Shown here piece by piece: positions 9,710 through 19,702 of a DNA stretch of 64,000 nt. Location of the stretch: assembly GCA_963677895.2 (NCBI GenBank), contig CAXXGJ010000002.1:256001-320000 (forward strand). Reading direction: 5' to 3'. The position numbers and the translations under genes are program-made. This stretch comes from Treponemataceae bacterium. GTDB lineage: Bacteria; Spirochaetota; Spirochaetia; Treponematales; Rectinemataceae. Numbering within the stretch: position 1 is the stretch's first letter; each line of letters starts with the position of its first letter. The notes below the pieces were generated by a model. That model ran no database searches, had not been told where the DNA came from, and was given only the letters and a program-made list of their open reading frames with translations.

Positions 9710-9825
9710 GGCCGCAAGCCTATCACTTTTCCCGCGCCGAATTCCATATGTCCGATGCCCGCGAAAATCCGCGGAAAGCGGAATTCTGTGGCGCTCGCGG
9801 GCTTTTTTGGATACAATGCGTTTAT

Positions 9826-11367
9826 ATGGCCAAAATGAAAGCACCCACTCCCGATGAACCGATAGAAAAACAGCTTTGGAAAGCGGCCGACAAGCTCCGC
9901 AAGAACATAGACGCCGCCGAGTACAAACATGTCGTCCTCGGCCTCATTTTCCTCAAATACATATCTGCGGCGTTCGAACGACTCCGCGCCACCCTCGTCG
10001 CGGGCCAAGGCGATTACGCGGGCGCCGATCCCGAGGACAGGGACGAGTACAAGGCCGAAAATGTCTTCTTCGTGCCCGAAGCCGCCCGCTGGTCCACACT
10101 CCAGGCCAACGCCAGGATTCCCACTGTCGGCAAGCTCGTGGATGACGCCATGGAAGCCCTGGAGAAGGATAATCCCTCCCTCAAGGACGTCCTGCCCAAA
10201 GTCTATGCCCGAGGTAATCTCGACGCCGCCAACCTGGGCGGCCTTATCGATCTCATCTCCAATATCGACTTCGGCGCCGCCAAAGAGCGGAGCGCCGACC
10301 TCTTGGGTCACGTTTTTGAATACTTCCTGGGTGAATTCGCCCTCGCGGAGGGCAAGAAGGGCGGCCAGTTCTACACGCCCCGCAGCGTCGTCGAACTCCT
10401 GGTCGAAATGCTCGAACCATACAAAGGCCGTGTTTTCGACCCCTGCTGCGGTTCGGGCGGCATGTTCGTGCAGTCTGAAAAATTTGTTCAGGCCCGACAG
10501 GGGCGGGTGGACGATATCTCCGTCTACGGCCAGGAATCGAACCTCACCACCTGGCGCCTTTGCAAGATGAACCTCGCCATACGCGGAATCGACAGCTCAC
10601 AAGTGAAGTGGAACAACGAAGGTTCCTTCCTCAACGACCTCCACAAGGATCTCAAAGCCGATTTCGTCATAGCCAATCCGCCCTTCAACGATTCCGACTG
10701 GTCTGGCGAATTGCTGCGAAAAGACGGCCGCTGGAAATTCGGCGCCCCGCCTTCGGGAAACGCCAACTACGCCTGGATCCAGCACTTTCTCCACCACCTC
10801 AAACCGGCAGGCACCGCCGGCTTCGTCCTCGCCAAGGGCTCCCTCACTTCCAAAAGTTCAGGCGAAGGCGAAATCCGCAAAGCGATTGTAGAAGCCCGCC
10901 TCGTCGACTGTATCGTCAACCTTCCGGCCAAGCTCTTTCTCAATACACAGATACCGGCCTGCCTCTGGTTCCTCTCGCGCGACAAGGCGGGCGCAGGCCA
11001 TCGCAACCGCGCCGAAGAAGTCCTCTTCATCGACGCCAGAAACGAAGGCCACCTCATCAACCGCCGCAGCAAGGAATTCGCGGCCGAAGACATCGAAAAA
11101 GTCGCCGGCGCCTACCGCGCATGGCGCGCCGGCGAAGGCTACGAGGACGTCAAAGGCTTCTGCGCCTCAGTCCCATTGAGCCGCGTGCGCGAACTCGACT
11201 ACGTCCTCACCCCCGGCCGCTACGTCGGTCTTCCCGACGAAGAGGACGACTTTGATTTCAAAGAACGCTTTACGCGTCTGAAAGCCGAGTTTGAAGACCA
11301 GCTTGCCGAGGAAGAGCGACTCAACAGAGCGATTTTGGAAAATCTGAACAAGGTAAAACTGCCATGA
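9826..11367 (+). CDS. hsdM: Type I restriction-modification methyltransferase subunit M
   Basis: [28 protein letters not shown] (SAM binding), NPPF (catalytic), LTPGRYVG. Confidence 0.97.
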
Positions 11368-12242
11368 GTGAAATTATAGCAATGCAGGAGATACAAAAGT
11401 GCATTTTTACGCTTCGTCAGACTCAGGTGATGATTGACGAGGATATCGCGGCTCTCTATGGCGTCGAAACGCGCGCCTTGAATCAGGCGGTGAAGAGAAA
11501 CAGCCAGCGTTTCCCGCCAGAATTCATGTTCCGGCTTTCGGAATCGGAGATGGAAATCTTGAGATCACAAAGTGTGACCTCAAAGTGGGGTGGTAGAAGA
11601 TATTTGCCTTTCGCCTTTACCGAACAGGGCGTGGCCATGCTGTCAGCCGTTCTTCACAGCGAAACGGCGGTAAAGGTCAGTATTCAGATCATGAGCGCCT
11701 TCGTGGCCATGCGCCGATTCCTGTTGACGAATGCGCAGGTATTCCAACGTCTGGATACTCTAGAGCTGAAGCAAATCCAAACCGATCGTAAAATCGACCA
11801 GGTTCTGGCAGCCATCGAGGATACAAGTATTCAACCAAAGCAGGGTATTTTCTATGATGGACAAGTCTTCGAAGCCTGGCGGTTTGTTTCCGATCTTGTG
11901 AGGTCGGCAAAAAAAACGATAATTCTCATCGACAATTATGTGGATGATTCGGTCTTGTCGCTCTTTTCAAAAAGGAAAAAATCGATCGCCATCACTCTCC
12001 TGACGAAAAGTATTTCCAAACAGCTTGAAATAGACGTAAAGAAATTCAATGAGCAGTATCCACCTATAACGGTTACTCAATTCAATACATCGCATGACCG
12101 CTTCCTGATTATCGATGAGATGGAATTGTATCATTTTGGGGCTTCCCTTAAAGACCTCGGAAAGAAATGGTTCGCGTTCTCGAAACTGGAAATGAAGGCG
12201 ATGGAAGTACTCGAAAACCTCAAAAAGGCGAATCTCATATGA
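11364..12242 (+). CDS. ORF6N (KilA-N-related) DNA-binding domain protein with a C-terminal PLD-like fold
   Basis: [24 protein letters not shown] and [13 protein letters not shown] (ORF6N). IDNYVD and [19 protein letters not shown] (PLD-like). Confidence 0.85.
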
Positions 12243-14062
12243 GAGAGTGGTCGGAAACAACACTATCGAGCTGTATACTAACCAATACAACCAGTATCGA
12301 TCAAAAATACTCCTATAAAATCATTAAATACCTCGACACTGGTTCAATTACTTGTAATAGAGTTGACTCTCTACAAGAAATAAAAATTGAAGAAGCACCA
12401 AGTCGAGCAAAAAGGTTAGTTAAGAAAGACGATATAATTTACTCATTGGTAAGGCCTAACCAGCTTCATTATGGATATATTGTTGATCCTTTACCAAATC
12501 TTGTGGTGTCAACGGGTTTTGTAGTAATTGAAAACAATAAGGAAAAAATTAACTCTCGATTTTTATACTATTTTCTTACACAAAATGAAACAACTGAGTA
12601 TCTTCATTCAATCGCTGAAGCCTCAACATCCGCTTATCCCTCGCTAAAACCAAATGACATTGAAGCGCTTGAGATTAATCTTCCCCCTCTTCCCGAACAG
12701 CGCGCTATCGCCGCAGTTCTCTCCGGCCTCGACGACAAGATCGAACTTCTGCGCCGCCAGAACCAAACTTTAGAGGCGATGGCTGAGATACTTTTCAGCC
12801 AGTACTTCGTGGAAGAGGCCGATGAAAAAGCTGTCGGGAAAATTGCAGATTTTGTGGACTTTAATCCTTCGCGTCAACTTGCAAAAGGAACAGCTGCTCC
12901 TTATCTCGAAATGACCAATGTGAGCTCGCAGTTTTTCTGCCCTGCGGAGTGGTATAGCAGAGAATATTCTTCCGGAATGAAGTTTATAAATGGCGATACT
13001 TTACTTGCGCGAATAACGCCCTGCCTTGAAAATGGAAAATCTGCCTTTGTCACCTTCCTTGAAAAAGATCAGGTAGGGTGGGGTTCTACAGAGTTTATCG
13101 TTATGCGTTCTAAAGGAAATCTTCATCCGCTGTTTTCCTATGCATTGGTGCGAAATAGAGATTTTCGCGATTATGCCGAAAGCTGCCTTGCAGGTTCGAG
13201 CGGTCGCCAGCGCATCGAAATTGAACACCTTATGAACTATGAGATAATCATTCCGACAGAGCGAGCAATACTAGAATTCAATCAGCAGATGAGCACGATA
13301 GCGCCAAAGCTTCATAGCAATTTTCTACAAATACGAACATTGGAAAAAATGCGCGATACACTTCTTCCCAAGCTCATGAGCGGCGAAGTACAAGTCAAGG
13401 ATCAAGCGTCACCTCCATCGGCAACAATCAAGACCACAATTTTTGAAAAAGAAAATGCACATAAGACAACAGACGAGTTTATTGAAGCGGTTGCGATTGC
13501 TTATTTAGTACGACTGCTCTCAAGCGAAAAGTTTCCTTTAGGCCGAAAACGTTATAATAAAATGGCTTATTTGGCACATCGAAAATCTGAAAATGATGTT
13601 CGAGACCAGTATCTAAAAAAGGCCGCAGGTCCATACAGCCCTTGGGCTAAATATAAAGGGCCAGAGCGAATAGCCATTCAGAATGGGTATGTGAAAGTTA
13701 TTAATTCCGGAAAGCTTGAAGGGTTTGTAATTGGAATAGATAACTATAAAATTGATAAGTATTTAGAGCACTATTCGATACGTTCTAGTCTGGAATGGGT
13801 TGTTAAAGAATTTCGGTACGCAAAAAACGACTATCTCGAATTGCTAGCTACTGTAGATTTTGCAGCCCTAGATTTACTAGCAGAGAAACAAAAAATTGGT
13901 GTCAACAATATCAAGTCTATTATTTTAAATAATAAAGACTGGGCTCCAAAGCTTACTCGTACAACTTTTTCTGATTTCAACATACAACAAGCGCTCGAAA
14001 AACTTGGAAGCATATTCCCGGCGATGTACAGGAGGTTGCCTCATGACACAAATCCATCCTAA
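12239..14062 (+). CDS. hsdS: Type I RM specificity subunit S fused to an extra ~220-aa C-terminal domain
   Basis: TRD1, conserved PPLPEQRAIAAVLSGLDDKIELLRRQNQTLEAMA, TRD2, LEKMRDTLLPKLMSGEV, then read-through into a non-HsdS domain. Confidence 0.92.
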   Translation: MREWSETTLSSCILTNTTSIDQKYSYKIIKYLDTGSITCNRVDSLQEIKIEEAPSRAKRLVKKDDIIYSLVRPNQLHYGYIVDPLPNLVVSTGFVVIENNKEKINSRFLYYFLTQNETTEYLHSIAEASTSAYPSLKPNDIEALEINLPPLPEQRAIAAVLSGLDDKIELLRRQNQTLEAMAEILFSQYFVEEADEKAVGKIADFVDFNPSRQLAKGTAAPYLEMTNVSSQFFCPAEWYSREYSSGMKFINGDTLLARITPCLENGKSAFVTFLEKDQVGWGSTEFIVMRSKGNLHPLFSYALVRNRDFRDYAESCLAGSSGRQRIEIEHLMNYEIIIPTERAILEFNQQMSTIAPKLHSNFLQIRTLEKMRDTLLPKLMSGEVQVKDQASPPSATIKTTIFEKENAHKTTDEFIEAVAIAYLVRLLSSEKFPLGRKRYNKMAYLAHRKSENDVRDQYLKKAAGPYSPWAKYKGPERIAIQNGYVKVINSGKLEGFVIGIDNYKIDKYLEHYSIRSSLEWVVKEFRYAKNDYLELLATVDFAALDLLAEKQKIGVNNIKSIILNNKDWAPKLTRTTFSDFNIQQALEKLGSIFPAMYRRLPHDTNPS

Positions 14063-14564
14063 CCTTTTTATCGGCACCGAACACGACTTCGAGCAAAGAG
14101 TCAAGAATCAGCCTGGCTGGTATGTCGTCCACGCATGCAAGGAACCTTACCACCGAAAGCTTTTAGGTTATACGACGCAGGGCGCTCCGAAGAGCCATCC
14201 CGAATACCTTTGGGCGAAGCGCGAAAATAGACTTTACCTCAATTTGGTAGATGTTGCCGATCCCGCGTACATTTCCGACGACATCGTTCGCGCAACGATG
14301 AAATTCATAGATGAAGCCCTCGCTACGGGAAACAAGTGCCTCGTACACTGCAATCTGGGCGAGAGCCGATCGCCAGTCCTCGGTCTTCTCTACATGGCGC
14401 ACCGAGGCCTTATCCCGAACGAGTCTCTCCCAATCGCGGAGTCTGCATTCATGAAGCTATATCCCGGTTATAACCCCAAGGCCGGTATGCGGGGCTTCCT
14501 CTCACAACATTGGGAGGAATACACTGCTCATATGTCATTTCAGGCCAAACAGGAGCTTGCGTGA
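14043..14564 (+). CDS. Dual-specificity/protein-tyrosine phosphatase family protein
   Basis: P-loop LVHCNLGESRS (HCxxGxxRS), N-terminal IHPNLFIG, SD aggagg. Confidence 0.85.
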   Translation: MTQIHPNLFIGTEHDFEQRVKNQPGWYVVHACKEPYHRKLLGYTTQGAPKSHPEYLWAKRENRLYLNLVDVADPAYISDDIVRATMKFIDEALATGNKCLVHCNLGESRSPVLGLLYMAHRGLIPNESLPIAESAFMKLYPGYNPKAGMRGFLSQHWEEYTAHMSFQAKQELA

Positions 14565-16408
14565 GTATGCTTACTCTCACTGACGTGGAATCGCTCGTCG
14601 AGTCCACCGATGTAGAGTGCAAGGCCGCTCGGGGGAAGTCCGGCGAAGGCGCAGTACCCGACAGTTTTTGGGAAACCTATTCGGCGATGGCCAATACGAA
14701 AGGTGGCATCGTCTACCTTGGAATTGAGGAGAAACCCGCAAGCATTTTCCATGTTGTGGGAATCCAGAACGTCGAAAAAATGCTCAAGGCTCTTTGGGAT
14801 ACTTTAAATGCAGGCAACAAGGTCAGCAAAAATATACTCGAACATGATGCCATTACTGTTCAGGAGATCGAGGGGAAAAGAATTATTCAAATAGCGGTTT
14901 CCCGTGCCCGCCGCAAGGATCGACCAATATATATTGGTCAGAATCCTCTTAAAGGTACCTTTGTCCGTCGTCATGAGGGTGACTATCATCTCGATGAAGA
15001 AGAAGTGCGCCGCATGACTGCCGAAGCGGTCGAGGATTCTCGGGACGAAACAGTACTACCAGACTTTAAGGTAGCTGATCTCGATATGGAAACAATTCTG
15101 AGCTATCGTAATAGATTCGCCGCGCTAAAACCAGCAAGCCCTTGGCTTGATTTGCCAGTTGAGGATTTTTTGCTGCGTATTGGTGCCGTACAAAAGAATC
15201 GCTCGACAGGTACAAATGAGGTACGTCGCGCTGGCTTGCTGATGTTCGGAAGATTCGATGCTATTCACGATGTGTATCCCTACTATTTTGTTGATTATCA
15301 GGAAAGATTATCTGCTAAATCCGATGAGCGATGGTCCGATCGCTTGGTTCCTGATGGTGATTGGTCTGGGAATCTATACGACTTCTTTCAGCGGATATAT
15401 CGAAAATTGACCGCCGACGTGAAAATTCCCTTCCGCTTGAGCGGCGCGACCAGGATCGATGATACGCCGATACATGAAGCGCTTCGAGAGACACTCGCAA
15501 ACACGCTCATTCATGCCGATTATACTGGTCGTGTTTCTGTGCTTGTGGAAAAATATCCAGACCGATTCATATTCCGGAACCCGGGACTCATGCGTGTCCC
15601 ACTAGAGCAAGCTCTTGCTGGCGGAATTAGTGATTGTCGGAACCGAAATCTTCAAAACATGTTCCGTTATGTCGGATATGGCGATCATGCGGGATCGGGT
15701 ATCCCAAAGATATTGCACAATTGGCATGAACAGCACTGGCAGGTTCCGTTTCTAACAGAAAACAATGAGCTTGGCTTTACTAAAATTGAACTGCGGATGA
15801 TTAGCCTCTTTCCTGAAGAAACGCATGAACACCTTTTATCGCAGTTTGGATCAAAGTATTCAGAAATGCCCGAACGGGACCGGATTATTCTTGTGACGAC
15901 CGCTCTTGAAGGCATGGTTACTCATAAACGGGTTATGCAACTCAGCAGCGAACATCCTAAAGATATCACCGCAAGGCTTTGCCGGCTTGTGCAAGATGGG
16001 TTCCTGTTGAAAACCGGCGAAACCCGCGCGCGGGTGTATTTCTTGCCAAGCTCCCCAGATAAGGCCTCGAGCTCCCCAGATAAGGCCTCGAGCTCCCCAG
16101 ATAAGGCCTCGAGCTCCCCAGATAGCACAGGTATATCAACGCTGGTTCAAGCTAAAATGGATGCTATTCTGTCTTCCCATGGTTGGCTCCGATTCCCTGG
16201 AAGACTTGCGCCATCAATGATGCGTGGTCTAATTCTCGATCTTTGTACAGGCGAGCCACTTGAGCTGCGGGTGTTGGCTAAGGCCTTGGCAAGGGATCCC
16301 AAAGGCCTGTATGAGGCCTATTTGAATCCAATGATCTCCGAAGGCCTTCTGGAGCTTAAGTATCCCGCGGCACGCAATCATCCTAACCAGGCCTATCGAA
16401 CTAAATAA
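14561..16408 (+). CDS. Schlafen/AlbA_2 domain + HATPase_c_4 + C-terminal HTH protein
   Basis: VECK..FWETYSAMANTKGGIVYLG (AlbA_2). ALRETLANTLIHADY, FRNPG, RNRNL..GDHAGSG (HATPase_c_4). C-terminal LLELKYP..NHPNQAY. GTG overlaps the upstream stop; alternative ATG at 14567. Confidence 0.85.
   Translation: MSMLTLTDVESLVESTDVECKAARGKSGEGAVPDSFWETYSAMANTKGGIVYLGIEEKPASIFHVVGIQNVEKMLKALWDTLNAGNKVSKNILEHDAITVQEIEGKRIIQIAVSRARRKDRPIYIGQNPLKGTFVRRHEGDYHLDEEEVRRMTAEAVEDSRDETVLPDFKVADLDMETILSYRNRFAALKPASPWLDLPVEDFLLRIGAVQKNRSTGTNEVRRAGLLMFGRFDAIHDVYPYYFVDYQERLSAKSDERWSDRLVPDGDWSGNLYDFFQRIYRKLTADVKIPFRLSGATRIDDTPIHEALRETLANTLIHADYTGRVSVLVEKYPDRFIFRNPGLMRVPLEQALAGGISDCRNRNLQNMFRYVGYGDHAGSGIPKILHNWHEQHWQVPFLTENNELGFTKIELRMISLFPEETHEHLLSQFGSKYSEMPERDRIILVTTALEGMVTHKRVMQLSSEHPKDITARLCRLVQDGFLLKTGETRARVYFLPSSPDKASSSPDKASSSPDKASSSPDSTGISTLVQAKMDAILSSHGWLRFPGRLAPSMMRGLILDLCTGEPLELRVLAKALARDPKGLYEAYLNPMISEGLLELKYPAARNHPNQAYRTK
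16049..16124 (+). repeat. Perfect 21-bp tandem repeat (3 copies + 13 nt), agctccccagataaggcctcg
   Basis: Identical units at 16049, 16070 and 16091, partial at 16112. Encodes SPDKASS. Confidence 0.95.
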
Positions 16409-16447: not shown

Positions 16448-19400
16448 ATGAAAAACAGGCTCGCGGAGTCGGATATCGAGGAATTTGCCCTTGAACTTCT
16501 GGGAAAGCGTGGCTATTGCTGGCTTTATGGCCCTGAAATAGCTCCCGATGGGGCGGCTCCCGCCAGGGCTTCGTTCGGCGAGGTGGTCCTGACCGATCGG
16601 CTCAGGGCGGCCTTGATGCGCATCAATCCATCGATCCCGCCCGATGCCCGGGAGGCGGCTCTCAAACAGCTTGTCAACCTCCACGCTCCCGATCTCGTGG
16701 CGGGCAACGAAACCTTTCATCGCCAGCTCACGGAAAACGTGAAAGTCAATTACCGGAAGGATGGCGATGTCAAGGGAGACTATGTCCAGGCCATCGATTT
16801 CGACCATCCCGAAAGGAACGAATTCCTTGCCGTCAACCAATTCACGGTGATCGAGGGCCGCGCCAACAAGCGACCCGATATTGTCCTTTTCGTGAACGGT
16901 ATTCCCCTTGTTGTCATCGAGTTGAAGAACCCCGCCGACGAAAACGCCACTGTCCATAGCGCTTTCAAACAGTGCAAAACCTACCTGCAAGAAATTCCCT
17001 CGCTCTTCACCTCGAATGGCTTTCTCGTCATCTCGGACGGACTCGATGCCCGCGCGGGAACGATCTCCTCCGATTTCGGACGCTTCATGGTCTGGAAGAC
17101 TTCCGATGGAGCGACCGAGGCGCCCGGGAACGCCAGCCAGCTCGAAACGCTTATCGCGGGGATGCTCGCGCCCGCGACCCTCCTGGATCTCGTTCGTCAC
17201 TTTATCGTCTTCGAGAAAGATAAAAAGGAAGACGCGAAGTCGAAGCAGGTCTTCATTGTGACTACCAAGAAAATGGCCGCCTATCACCAGTATCACGCGG
17301 TCAACCGCGCCGTGGCTTCGACCCTTCGTGCTTCGGGCTATGCCGCGAGGCGGACAAGCGTGGCAGCGGGACTTATAGTCCCTGAATCGCCAGAAGCCTA
17401 CGGACTTCCCGGCGTGAAAAGCCAACCGGCCGGCGATCGCAAGGGCGGCGTGGTCTGGCACACCCAGGGTTCGGGGAAATCCCTTTCGATGGTATTCTTC
17501 GCGGGCAAGATAATCCTCGCCATGGAAAATCCCACCCTCGTGGCGATAACCGACCGCAACGATCTTGACGACCAGCTCTTCGACACCTTCGCCGCCTGCC
17601 GCCAGCTTTTACGCCAGGAGCCCGTCCAGGCGGAAAGTCGGGAACACCTGAAGCGCCTCCTCCAGGTGGTTTCAGGCGGGATTGTCTTTACCACTATGCA
17701 GAAGTTCCAGCCCGAAGAGGGCAATGTCCTCCAAACCCTCTCCGACCGGGACAATATTGTCGTCATCGCCGATGAGGCCCACCGCAGCCAGTACGGATTC
17801 AAGGCCAAGACCATCGACGAAAAGGACGACGGGAAGCGCGTGATCGGCAAACGGACTGTCTACGGTTTCGCCAAATACCTGCGCGACGCCCTCCCCCTGG
17901 CAACCTACCTTGGATTCACCGGAACCCCAATCGAGAAAGCGGATGTCAACACGCCGGCTGTTTTCGGCAACTATGTGGACGTCTACGATATCGCCCAAGC
18001 CGTGGACGACCACGCGACCGTCCGGATCTACTATGAGAGCCGCCTCGCCAAAATCGCCTTGAGCGACGAGGGCAGAAAGCTTGTCGAGGATTTGGACGAA
18101 GACCTTGAAGAAGACGACCTGAGCGATTCGCGGCAGGCCAAGGCGAAGTGGACGCAACTCGAGGCGCTCATCGGAAGCCGGGACCGCATCCAGCGTATCG
18201 CCGCCGATATTGTCTGGCACTTTGAAAGGCGCATAGCGGCTATCGATGGCAAGGGTATGATCGTCGCCATGTCGCGGCGCATCGCGGCCGAACTCTACGC
18301 CGAAATCATCGCGCTGCGGCCCGGGTGGCACGATCCCGACCTGCGCAAGGGCGTCGTCAAAATCGTCATGACATCGGCCTCTTCCGATGGACCTGAAATT
18401 TCCGCGCATCATACGACCAAGAAGGAAAGGCGCGTGCTTTCCGACCGGATGAAGGATCCTGATGACCCGTTGAAACTCGTCATAGTCCGCGACATGTGGC
18501 TTACTGGCTTCGATGTCCCCTGTCTGCATACGATGTACATCGACAAGCCCATGAAGGGCCATACGCTCATGCAAGCCATCGCGAGGGTCAACCGTGTCTA
18601 CAAGGACAAGAAAGGCGGGCTTGTTGTCGACTACCTCGGCATAGCCTCCGACCTCAAGGAAGCCCTCTCCTTCTACTCGGATTCGGGCGGGAAGGGCGAC
18701 CCCGCCGCCACCCAGGAAGAGGCAGTCCGTCTCATGGAGGAAAAACTCGAAGTCGTCGCGGCGATGTTCCACGGCTTCCCCTATCGGGACTATTTCCGCG
18801 CCGGCACGGGCCGCAAGCTCTCGATTATCCTCGAGGCGGAGGAACACGTCCTGGGCCTGCCCGACGGCAAAAAGCGTTTTGTCGACGAAGTGACGGCCCT
18901 CTCGCAAGCTTATTCCATCGCCGTCCCCCACGAACGGGCCATGGAGGCGGGCGATGAAATCGCTTTCTTCCAGGCCGTGAAGGCCCGTCTTGTGAAGTTC
19001 GACCGCTCCGGAACCGGGCGGAGCGATGAGGAAATCGAAACGGCGATCCGCCAGGTCATCGATGAAGCCCTCGTGAGCGAAAAGGTCGTGGACATTTTCG
19101 ATGCCGCCGGCATCAAGAAACCCGATATCTCCATTCTCTCGGAGGATTTCCTCATGGAAGTCCGCCACATGAAGCACAAGAACATCGCCCTGGAAGTGTT
19201 GCGCAAGATAATGGGCGACGAGATATCGGCTCGTATGAGGACCAACCTGGTACAAGGAAGGAGCCTCATGGAGATGCTCGAAGCCTCCATCCGACGCTAT
19301 CACAATAAAATTGTCACCGCGGCCGAGGTGATCGAGGAGATTATCGGCTTAGGCAAGGAAATCCGGGCGATGGACGCTGAAGGCTCGGCGCTGGGCCTCA

Positions 19401-19702
19401 GCACCTACGAATACGCCTTCTATACTGCAGTCGCGGACAACGAAAGCGCCCGCGAACTCATGGGTAAGGAGAAACTCCGGGAACTCGCCGTCGTCCTTTA
19501 CCGGAAGATCAAAGACAACACCTCGATCGACTGGACGATCAAGGAAAACGTCAAGGCGAAACTCAAGGTCATCATCAAGCGGACGCTCAGACAATATGGC
19601 TATCCGCCTGACATGCAGAAGCTCGCCACCGAAACCGTGCTCAGGCAGGCCGAGATGATCGCCGATGAACTGACGAAGCCCAATTTATATTCGCATGTAT
19701 AG
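16448..19702 (+). CDS. hsdR: Type I restriction endonuclease subunit R
   Basis: PDIVLFVNGIPLVVIELK (PD-(D/E)xK), QCKTY, HTQGSGKS, DEAH, FTGTP, MWLTGFD, QAIARVNR. Confidence 0.97.
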   Translation: MKNRLAESDIEEFALELLGKRGYCWLYGPEIAPDGAAPARASFGEVVLTDRLRAALMRINPSIPPDAREAALKQLVNLHAPDLVAGNETFHRQLTENVKVNYRKDGDVKGDYVQAIDFDHPERNEFLAVNQFTVIEGRANKRPDIVLFVNGIPLVVIELKNPADENATVHSAFKQCKTYLQEIPSLFTSNGFLVISDGLDARAGTISSDFGRFMVWKTSDGATEAPGNASQLETLIAGMLAPATLLDLVRHFIVFEKDKKEDAKSKQVFIVTTKKMAAYHQYHAVNRAVASTLRASGYAARRTSVAAGLIVPESPEAYGLPGVKSQPAGDRKGGVVWHTQGSGKSLSMVFFAGKIILAMENPTLVAITDRNDLDDQLFDTFAACRQLLRQEPVQAESREHLKRLLQVVSGGIVFTTMQKFQPEEGNVLQTLSDRDNIVVIADEAHRSQYGFKAKTIDEKDDGKRVIGKRTVYGFAKYLRDALPLATYLGFTGTPIEKADVNTPAVFGNYVDVYDIAQAVDDHATVRIYYESRLAKIALSDEGRKLVEDLDEDLEEDDLSDSRQAKAKWTQLEALIGSRDRIQRIAADIVWHFERRIAAIDGKGMIVAMSRRIAAELYAEIIALRPGWHDPDLRKGVVKIVMTSASSDGPEISAHHTTKKERRVLSDRMKDPDDPLKLVIVRDMWLTGFDVPCLHTMYIDKPMKGHTLMQAIARVNRVYKDKKGGLVVDYLGIASDLKEALSFYSDSGGKGDPAATQEEAVRLMEEKLEVVAAMFHGFPYRDYFRAGTGRKLSIILEAEEHVLGLPDGKKRFVDEVTALSQAYSIAVPHERAMEAGDEIAFFQAVKARLVKFDRSGTGRSDEEIETAIRQVIDEALVSEKVVDIFDAAGIKKPDISILSEDFLMEVRHMKHKNIALEVLRKIMGDEISARMRTNLVQGRSLMEMLEASIRRYHNKIVTAAEVIEEIIGLGKEIRAMDAEGSALGLSTYEYAFYTAVADNESARELMGKEKLRELAVVLYRKIKDNTSIDWTIKENVKAKLKVIIKRTLRQYGYPPDMQKLATETVLRQAEMIADELTKPNLYSHV

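Follow-up and report, generated by a model that had tools for sequence, protein, structure and literature searches.

A conserved DarG-C/Panacea-fold domain at the C terminus of type I restriction specificity subunits

Gene layout of the locus

The window (the whole 64,000-nucleotide stretch of DNA that was analyzed) contains a type I restriction-modification (RM) operon in the order hsdM, ORF6N gene, hsdS with an extension, phosphatase-like gene, Schlafen/RecG-C gene, and hsdR:

9748..11367, plus strand: hsdM, type I methyltransferase (Pfam N6_Mtase, HsdM_N; GC 0.58, GC3 0.72); these are ORF limits, the actual start being probably ~80 nt further in
11364..12242, plus strand: passenger gene for an ORF6N-domain protein (PF10543; PADLOC PDC-S05)
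12239..13396, plus strand: HsdS core with two target-recognition domains (PF01420; PADLOC Specificity_I to residue ~390; GC 0.42, GC3 0.38)
13397..13471, plus strand: flexible linker of ~25 aa (pLDDT 51–62 over model residues 1–20)
13472..14029, plus strand: DarG-C-terminal/Panacea-fold domain (AF2 pLDDT 90; 7YK3 match; hhalign match to DarG C-terminal domains)
14043..14564, plus strand: passenger gene, dual-specificity phosphatase-like (DSP; PF00782), overlapping the hsdS stop
14510..16408, plus strand: passenger gene for a Schlafen/AlbA_2 and RecG-C-like protein (PF04326, PF13749)
16448..19702, plus strand: hsdR, type I restriction subunit (HSDR_N, SWI2_SNF2, T1RH-like_C; GC 0.58, GC3 0.74)

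With Methylase_S domains encoded inside an hsdM-hsdS-hsdR operon, the central gene is that of a type I specificity subunit. It is a single ORF (first ATG 12167, likely start 12239, end 14062). The usual HsdS end, ...LLPKLMSGEVQV, falls at 13396, HsdS models end near residue 387–390 of the fused protein, and 221 in-frame codons follow before a TAA at 14060–14062. A preliminary description of this DNA had noted a frame running on for ~220 aa past the normal end, and every motif that it quoted is present. It had also raised the possibility of a read-through sequencing artefact, which the data contradict: the junction is covered with no differences by contigs of runs X1 (11300–16078) and X3 (11300–14081), X3 bearing another study code than X1, which may be the source sample. 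Moreover, 366 proteins (333–1063 aa, this HsdS included) match the extension, and PF01420 is found in 112 of the best 120. The fusion of HsdS to the extension is confirmed as real. A low-depth X3 contig lacks 13389–14052, so that the end of HsdS runs straight into the phosphatase gene; it has only 23 letters on one side, may come from another organism, and was left out of the evidence.

The HsdS core and the extension (GC 0.38, GC3 0.32) are both low in GC compared with the genome-like hsdM and hsdR, and the fused gene therefore probably came in as one piece. The low-GC stretch extends over 11364–16408 (ORF6N, hsdS, phosphatase, and Schlafen genes) between genome-like hsdM and hsdR, which suggests cassette exchange within a resident RM operon. 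A short tandem repeat, SSPDKA, lies at ~16050–16130 in the Schlafen/RecG-C gene, and contigs of several runs break there.

Fold and spread of the extension

The extension was modeled by AF2 from 85 sequences (pLDDT 90). It consists of a winged-helix half carrying the KxxY and GPY motifs, followed by a helical half with ELLATVD and WxxK. The sole clear structural match was DarG's C-terminal domain, 7YK3 (Foldseek E 1.4e-4), with Z 13.8–14.1 and rmsd 3.6 over 165–166 aligned residues at 14–15% identity; PadR-type winged helices came next at Z 7.9. When a profile of 74 extension members was compared with one of 17 DarG C-terminal domains, hhalign returned 97.6% (E 3e-12). The C-terminal half of the PADLOC DarG model also matched (E 2e-7), as did NCBIfam NF048014 (DarG) over model positions 148–338 (E 3e-6), at a level that falls far short of the whole-protein cut-off. 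Profile and Foldseek comparison of the last ~220 aa, as proposed in the preliminary description, thus bears out the DarG C-terminal fold that it had suggested from motifs.

The same description had also called the domain Panacea-like, and here the relationship is remote. PF13274 (Panacea/SocA) matched none of the 74 extension members at E<=0.1, nor this HsdS. The extension profile A3 finds a protein (L095/L130; E 1.4e-4) that itself passes the PF13274 cut-off, and DUF4065 is described as homologous to the DarG C-terminal domain in a 2026 paper (PMC13621843, in part). By this transitive link, along with the GP(V/Y) hairpin motif, the extension is tied to the Panacea/SocA superfamily as far as sequence comparison can tell. 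An Atlas neighbor cluster with PF13274 in 13% of its members (at 0.82) is a lead only. Among the matches listed by the fold searches there was no solved Panacea structure, of which the library may contain none; Pfam, PHROGs, and PDB sequence searches with the extension gave nothing usable, and a viral fold search gave no match at E<=0.001. At L095-L097 and L130:4061-5936 a stand-alone Panacea-family protein is encoded right after an HD-domain phosphohydrolase gene.

The extension was confirmed in 179 stretches of GTDB genomes, of which the best 80, from ~20 phyla, were kept. Among these 80 loci, 75 have it at the end of an HsdS-type ORF, four have the sigma-linked form described below, and one is a fragment. 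It is carried alongside HsdR of several families, as judged by a crude best-hit grouping. A second clade, ~19% identical (profile match 95%), comprises 198 matches with PF01420 in 114 of the best 120; its members are attached to the C-terminal end of HsdS or of M-S fusions (e.g., L093 / L129:5651-7549), and it is common in Leptospira and in Bacteroidota-labeled proteins. Median dN/dS was 0.23, calculated over 121 overlapping, non-independent pairs. The extension is thereby shown to be a conserved, folded, and selected domain at the C terminus of type I specificity subunits in several RM families.

It is also optional for closely related RM systems. The closest system among 61 relatives (HsdM 77%, HsdR 66%) has a 401-aa HsdS with neither extension nor passengers, an observation that would suit a functionless gene-fusion relic or an assembly artefact. 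Against such an origin stand the junction unchanged in two runs, the hundreds of fusions in two clades, and the purifying selection; this explanation is already largely refuted, and we consider it extremely improbable.

Close copies of the extension were found in four of 401 genomes sampled from the phylum of the source organism. By tblastn, the extension was matched neither in 72,556 plasmids nor in 50,697 phage records; viral contigs yielded two loci with the extension, both in RM context. A profile search of representatives produced 902 matches at E<=0.001 and 347 at 1e-30, and since that profile retained ~45 HsdS columns, its weak matches were not counted as members of the domain family. 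The PADLOC RM models MTase_I PDLC03039 and Specificity_I PDLC03196 contain such extensions, unlabeled; the sequences have therefore been in databases, but unrecognized. One extension-bearing HsdS (P0038 / L007:8309-10567) has a GIY-YIG domain inside it, and an HsdS without the extension (L120:4000-5724) begins with a stretch whose motif is nucleotidyltransferase-like.

A second setting beside sigma factors

In proteins of ~287 aa the same domain follows a helical N terminus in place of HsdS. Twenty-six such loci were collected, some of them replicates. A sigma-70-like gene lies just upstream in 19 of the 21 with at least 700 nt of upstream sequence, and a divergent Ubl-E2 gene is present in 14 of the 15 with at least 1500 nt. 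The divergent operon, encoding multi-ubiquitin/E2 and JAB/E1 components, points away (PF14452, PF14462, PF14464 (weak), PF00899); having Ubl fused to a family-E E2, a JAB peptidase, and an E1, it is called Bub-like, a grade given on these components only. No IrrE-type motif was found in the 16 loci with at least 1000 nt of downstream sequence. The sigma-linked domains are 51–57% identical to the extension of this HsdS, and the tree places them on one supported branch together with it.

The helical N terminus is predicted to be anti-sigma-like and to bind its own sigma factor. When the sigma factor of L008 was co-folded with the N-terminal 80 aa of the fusion, the score was 0.66, compared with 0.00 for the best control; the runs agreed in at least 89% of contacts, and the partner pLDDT was at least 76. 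The mark set for this score is reached by 116 of 157 solved pairs versus 2 of 215 mismatched pairs. The model supports binding of the sigma factor by these 80 residues, although resemblance to sigma/anti-sigma complexes of solved structure may underlie the score, and the model concerns a protein other than this HsdS, with the DarG-C-type domain left outside the modeled complex. The pair of a sigma-70-like factor and an anti-sigma-like/DarG-C fusion (L002, L006, L008, L010, L136-L151) may be a regulator of Bub-like systems not described so far.

Related sigma factors belong to a triad of sigma factor, small protein, and IrrE in three of six loci inspected. There, an ORF of 116–157 aa matching the anti-sigma-like N-terminal part is followed by an IrrE/M78 protease gene, and in two of the three loci the triad is divergent from Wadjet-like or SMODS genes. 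Such triads stand beside Wadjet-like, SMODS, or type I RM genes (L182:4524-6315, L196:4252-6051, L197:4101-5913), and the arrangement looks like a general switch of defense operons. An Atlas search with the small triad protein gave no usable match. The triad of L197 lies right upstream of hsdM-hsdS, a hint that the sigma-linked fusion arose when a sigma-triad/hsdM/hsdS-extension locus underwent a deletion. If the sigma-linked form is a deletion product, its occupying the place of the protease need not mean that it does the job of the protease. An AU test of the sigma-linked form deriving from HsdS fusions gave p 0.196, and the tree is compatible with either direction of transfer.

Candidate functions and relation to known systems

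The preliminary description had proposed a toxin-binding or phage-protein-sensing domain, tethered to HsdS, that links RM integrity to an effector, and had seen neither darT nor a macrodomain gene in the window. The absence of darT holds genome-wide: a family search that gave matches in other genomes gave none in this one (92.8% complete). For the macrodomain, none was found by a search that is insensitive and missed the extension domain too, and Pfam Macro had no match in 23 ORFs of the window scanned between 79 and 29838. DarT occurs in seven of 50 carrier genomes examined (50 of the best-80 carriers), the background being 18 of 301 genomes from the phylum of the source organism, which is not a matched control for the carriers. 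In eight darT regions from carriers each darT has its own neighbor, which in seven is a DarG-type ORF with a macrodomain-like start. One darT and DarG-type pair, in L013, is ~7 kb from a fusion. At L087:2579-3832 a DarT-family domain is fused to ankyrin-like repeats, and its neighbor is not a macrodomain protein.

These counts bear on the reading of the extension as a decoy, an antitoxin that would mimic ssDNA as DarG does and so intercept DarT-like DNA ADP-ribosyltransferases entering the cell, or other enzymes that bind ssDNA. It would fit with the best structural match being a DarT-bound DarG C-terminal domain, a domain that on its own neutralizes and sequesters DarT (PMC7003065, in part). 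However, identity to 7YK3 is 14–15%, DarT keeps its own neighbor each time, and the segment past GPY is neutral (+0.5) where that of DarG, described as mimicking negatively charged ssDNA, is acidic (−3.2; PMC11481870, in part). We consider a decoy very unlikely.

Alternatively, the extension could be a guard that keeps a toxin from its own locus (phosphatase, Schlafen, ORF6N, Fic, etc.) silent for as long as the RM complex is not under attack, as in EcoprrI with PrrC (PMC3874165, in part); Panacea is reported to be hyperpromiscuous for toxins (PMC8832971, in part). Both hsdM and hsdR are present in 56 of the best 80 of 179 loci, the remaining 24 being incomplete or of other type. Forty of the 56 have varied inserted genes, some of them toxin-like (Fic, HipA, AbiE nearby), but the inserts are mutually unrelated and do not track the domain, and 16 loci have no insert. 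Homologs of the Schlafen/RecG-C gene were found at 12 of these 80 fusion loci and of the DSP and ORF6N genes at none, and the 80 loci hold no conserved toxin neighbor. The same passengers are met without the extension (ORF6N and Schlafen genes in RM loci that lack it, Schlafen beside an extension-less HsdS in L121), and close homologs of the domain stand at loci without RM genes. The domain also stays 40–60% identical across varied loci, which would be unexpected of a partner-swapping antitoxin. A guard is accordingly quite unlikely, and of the earlier proposal the sensing half fits, while the toxin-binding link to a local effector is not supported.

The charge and shape of the winged-helix half raise another alternative, a plain accessory dsDNA-binding domain that senses no signal and would either repress its own hsd or divergent promoter or raise target affinity by clamping DNA non-specifically. 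Model residues 23–130 match PadR/MarR winged helices at Z 7–8, an R/K cluster is conserved in helix 2 and ahead of GPY, and the 50 residues ahead of GPY have a net charge of +4.9 versus +2.0 in DarG. Whole extensions average +3.1 ± 4.1 versus −0.3 ± 4.4 for DarG, with overlapping ranges, and these are sequence charges rather than surface potentials. Yet Z 7–8 is the score of a common arrangement, and the most conserved columns, among which AAGPY is invariant, include the half outside the winged helix (ELLATVD, WxxK). Panacea has been judged an unlikely autoregulator (PMC10440598, in part), and promoter and terminator scans of the operon found promoter-like sites at chance level. On balance, we think an accessory role of this kind unlikely.

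A further candidate is suggested by the linkers. About a third of HsdS-extension linkers, in both clades (L001-L080, P0001-P0479), have a short hydrophobic motif of the type N/K-V-I/V-P-L/F, which may resemble an adaptor tail. It was found in 67 of 219 clade-1 linkers (1.6 in shuffles) and in 10 of 28 in clade 2 (0.8), far over shuffles, compared with 1.2% of random windows and one of 26 central HsdS linkers. The domain and linker might then act as a built-in, SocA-like protease adaptor or degron and deliver HsdR/HsdS, or the anti-sigma protein, to a protease such as ClpXP. SocA, of the Panacea family, serves as an adaptor for ClpXP (PMC5422525, in part), ClpX is present in five of five genomes checked, and HsdR of EcoKI is degraded by ClpXP in restriction alleviation by a recognition route given as unidentified (PMC4231737, in part). 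On the other hand, the motif was defined post hoc, after the linkers were seen, is missing in this HsdS and in 48 of the 52 linkers of the sigma-linked form, and is unlike the LKxh consensus reported for the zinc-binding domain of E. coli ClpX (PMC7226468, in part). We find this adaptor role rather unlikely.

The reading that we tentatively favor, with a likelihood just short of even, is that the extension is a portable sensor or input module of the DarG-C/Panacea fold rather than an antitoxin paired with a toxin of its locus. It is put forward because the domain, in the sigma-linked form, occupies the position that a CapP-type protease has in related loci and because Panacea has been proposed as a sensor in multidomain antitoxins where another domain inhibits (PMC10440598, in part). 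The CapP-type protease is reported to be activated by ssDNA (PMC13373217 and PMC11601596, each in part), and the CapP, CapW, and CapK regulators of such operons are said to sense ssDNA (PMC13373217, in part). Neither HsdM nor HsdR nor a local toxin can be the partner shared by the two settings, because sigma-linked loci have none of these; this exclusion assumes that domains 51–57% identical do the same job, and we infer the later steps. This would leave DNA, some factor of the host, or something made by a phage as candidates. The HsdS and anti-sigma hosts share no neighbor, and the ligand would therefore be something general to attacked cells, most likely DNA that is single-stranded or damaged, bound through the basic winged-helix half, or a phage protein. 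To our knowledge, the partners bound by characterized members of the fold are proteins (DarT, diverse toxins) and not DNA, which counts against this reading, as does a net charge of the extension that is only mildly positive.

Binding of the cue would alter the fate of the carrier protein. On the anti-sigma protein it may free the sigma factor, in the role that the IrrE protease has in related loci; on HsdS it may gate the restriction complex. The most plausible output on HsdS would be a damping of restriction at times when the DNA of the host itself is in danger, i.e., a built-in restriction alleviation; such damping is what the physiology is known to require after DNA damage, which is reported to suppress type I restriction (PMC3874165 and PMC4231737, each in part). 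A bolder proposal, which we hold to be doubtful though conceivable, is that the DarG-C/Panacea fold is a general sensor of DNA damage or infection bolted onto varied defense machines. On HsdS it would make a self-regulating type I enzyme, one that needs no separate regulator to switch its cutting off (or on); on the anti-sigma protein it would define a sigma switch of ubiquitin-like immunity that works without a protease and is so far undescribed. If so, these would be two clean toxin-free systems for finding the long-sought Panacea/DarG trigger.

HsdS is usually treated as a specificity module with two target-recognition domains. A family without Pfam annotation adds to it a conserved third domain in ~20 phyla and two distant clades, and we judge the HsdS-extension to be a real, widespread new variant built of known parts. 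Neither the HsdS fusion nor the sigma-linked form was found in open-licence PMC/bioRxiv literature, searched by listings and the starts of abstracts; supplementary tables could list such fusions. The accessible parts of PMC8120803, PMC12170906, and 10.1101/2025.05.14.653371 have nothing on the HsdS fusion, and the regulators named in those of PMC13373217 and PMC11601596 do not include the sigma-linked form. The trigger of Panacea-fold antitoxins is posed as an open question (PMC10440598, in part), and the recognition of type I enzymes for restriction alleviation is described as unresolved (PMC4231737, in part). A restriction enzyme that can be assayed carries one copy, free of a toxin, and an anti-sigma protein with a promoter output carries another, 51–57% identical, so that both questions can be put directly to the test.

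Among known systems, the DarG C-terminal domain, from the DarTG2 antitoxin (7YK3; NF048014; PADLOC PDLC02990), is like the extension over the whole domain fold (Z 14, 166 residues aligned) and in the KxxY, GPY, ELL-T-V, and W-x-x-K motifs. Unlike DarG, the extension protein has HsdS as its N-terminal part instead of a macrodomain and has no darT partner; the extension is 14–18% identical, more basic (with overlapping ranges), and fused to HsdS or an anti-sigma-like protein. With Panacea/SocA/DUF4065 (PF13274) it shares the superfamily, through the transitive match and the published DUF4065-DarG homology (PMC13621843, in part), and an accessory use in multidomain proteins that may be sensory (PMC10440598, in part). 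It differs in having GPY instead of GPV, a length of ~190 aa with a longer helical half, a place outside two-gene TA loci, and no PF13274 match at E<=0.1 among 74 members.

The operon resembles EcoprrI with PrrC in having genes inserted among the hsd genes of a type I RM system, but no conserved effector travels with the extension, and the extra part is on HsdS itself. Alleviation of EcoKI restriction by ClpXP likewise places type I restriction under a control responsive to DNA damage, which here is the presumed output; in EcoKI, HsdS is of ordinary length, the host protease acts on HsdR, and the accessible sources describe no role for an HsdS domain. The sigma-linked form resembles CapH+CapP, CapW, and CapK+CapS, which regulate Bub and other immune operons, in standing divergent from a Multi-ubiquitin/E2-E and JAB/ThiF operon in the same position, and CapP in that related triads carry an IrrE/M78 protease. 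It departs from them in using a sigma-70-like factor with an anti-sigma-like protein, the domain being fused and the protease missing. The fused protein encoded here is an HsdS with a DarG-C/Panacea fold that belongs neither to DarG nor to the Panacea TA loci.
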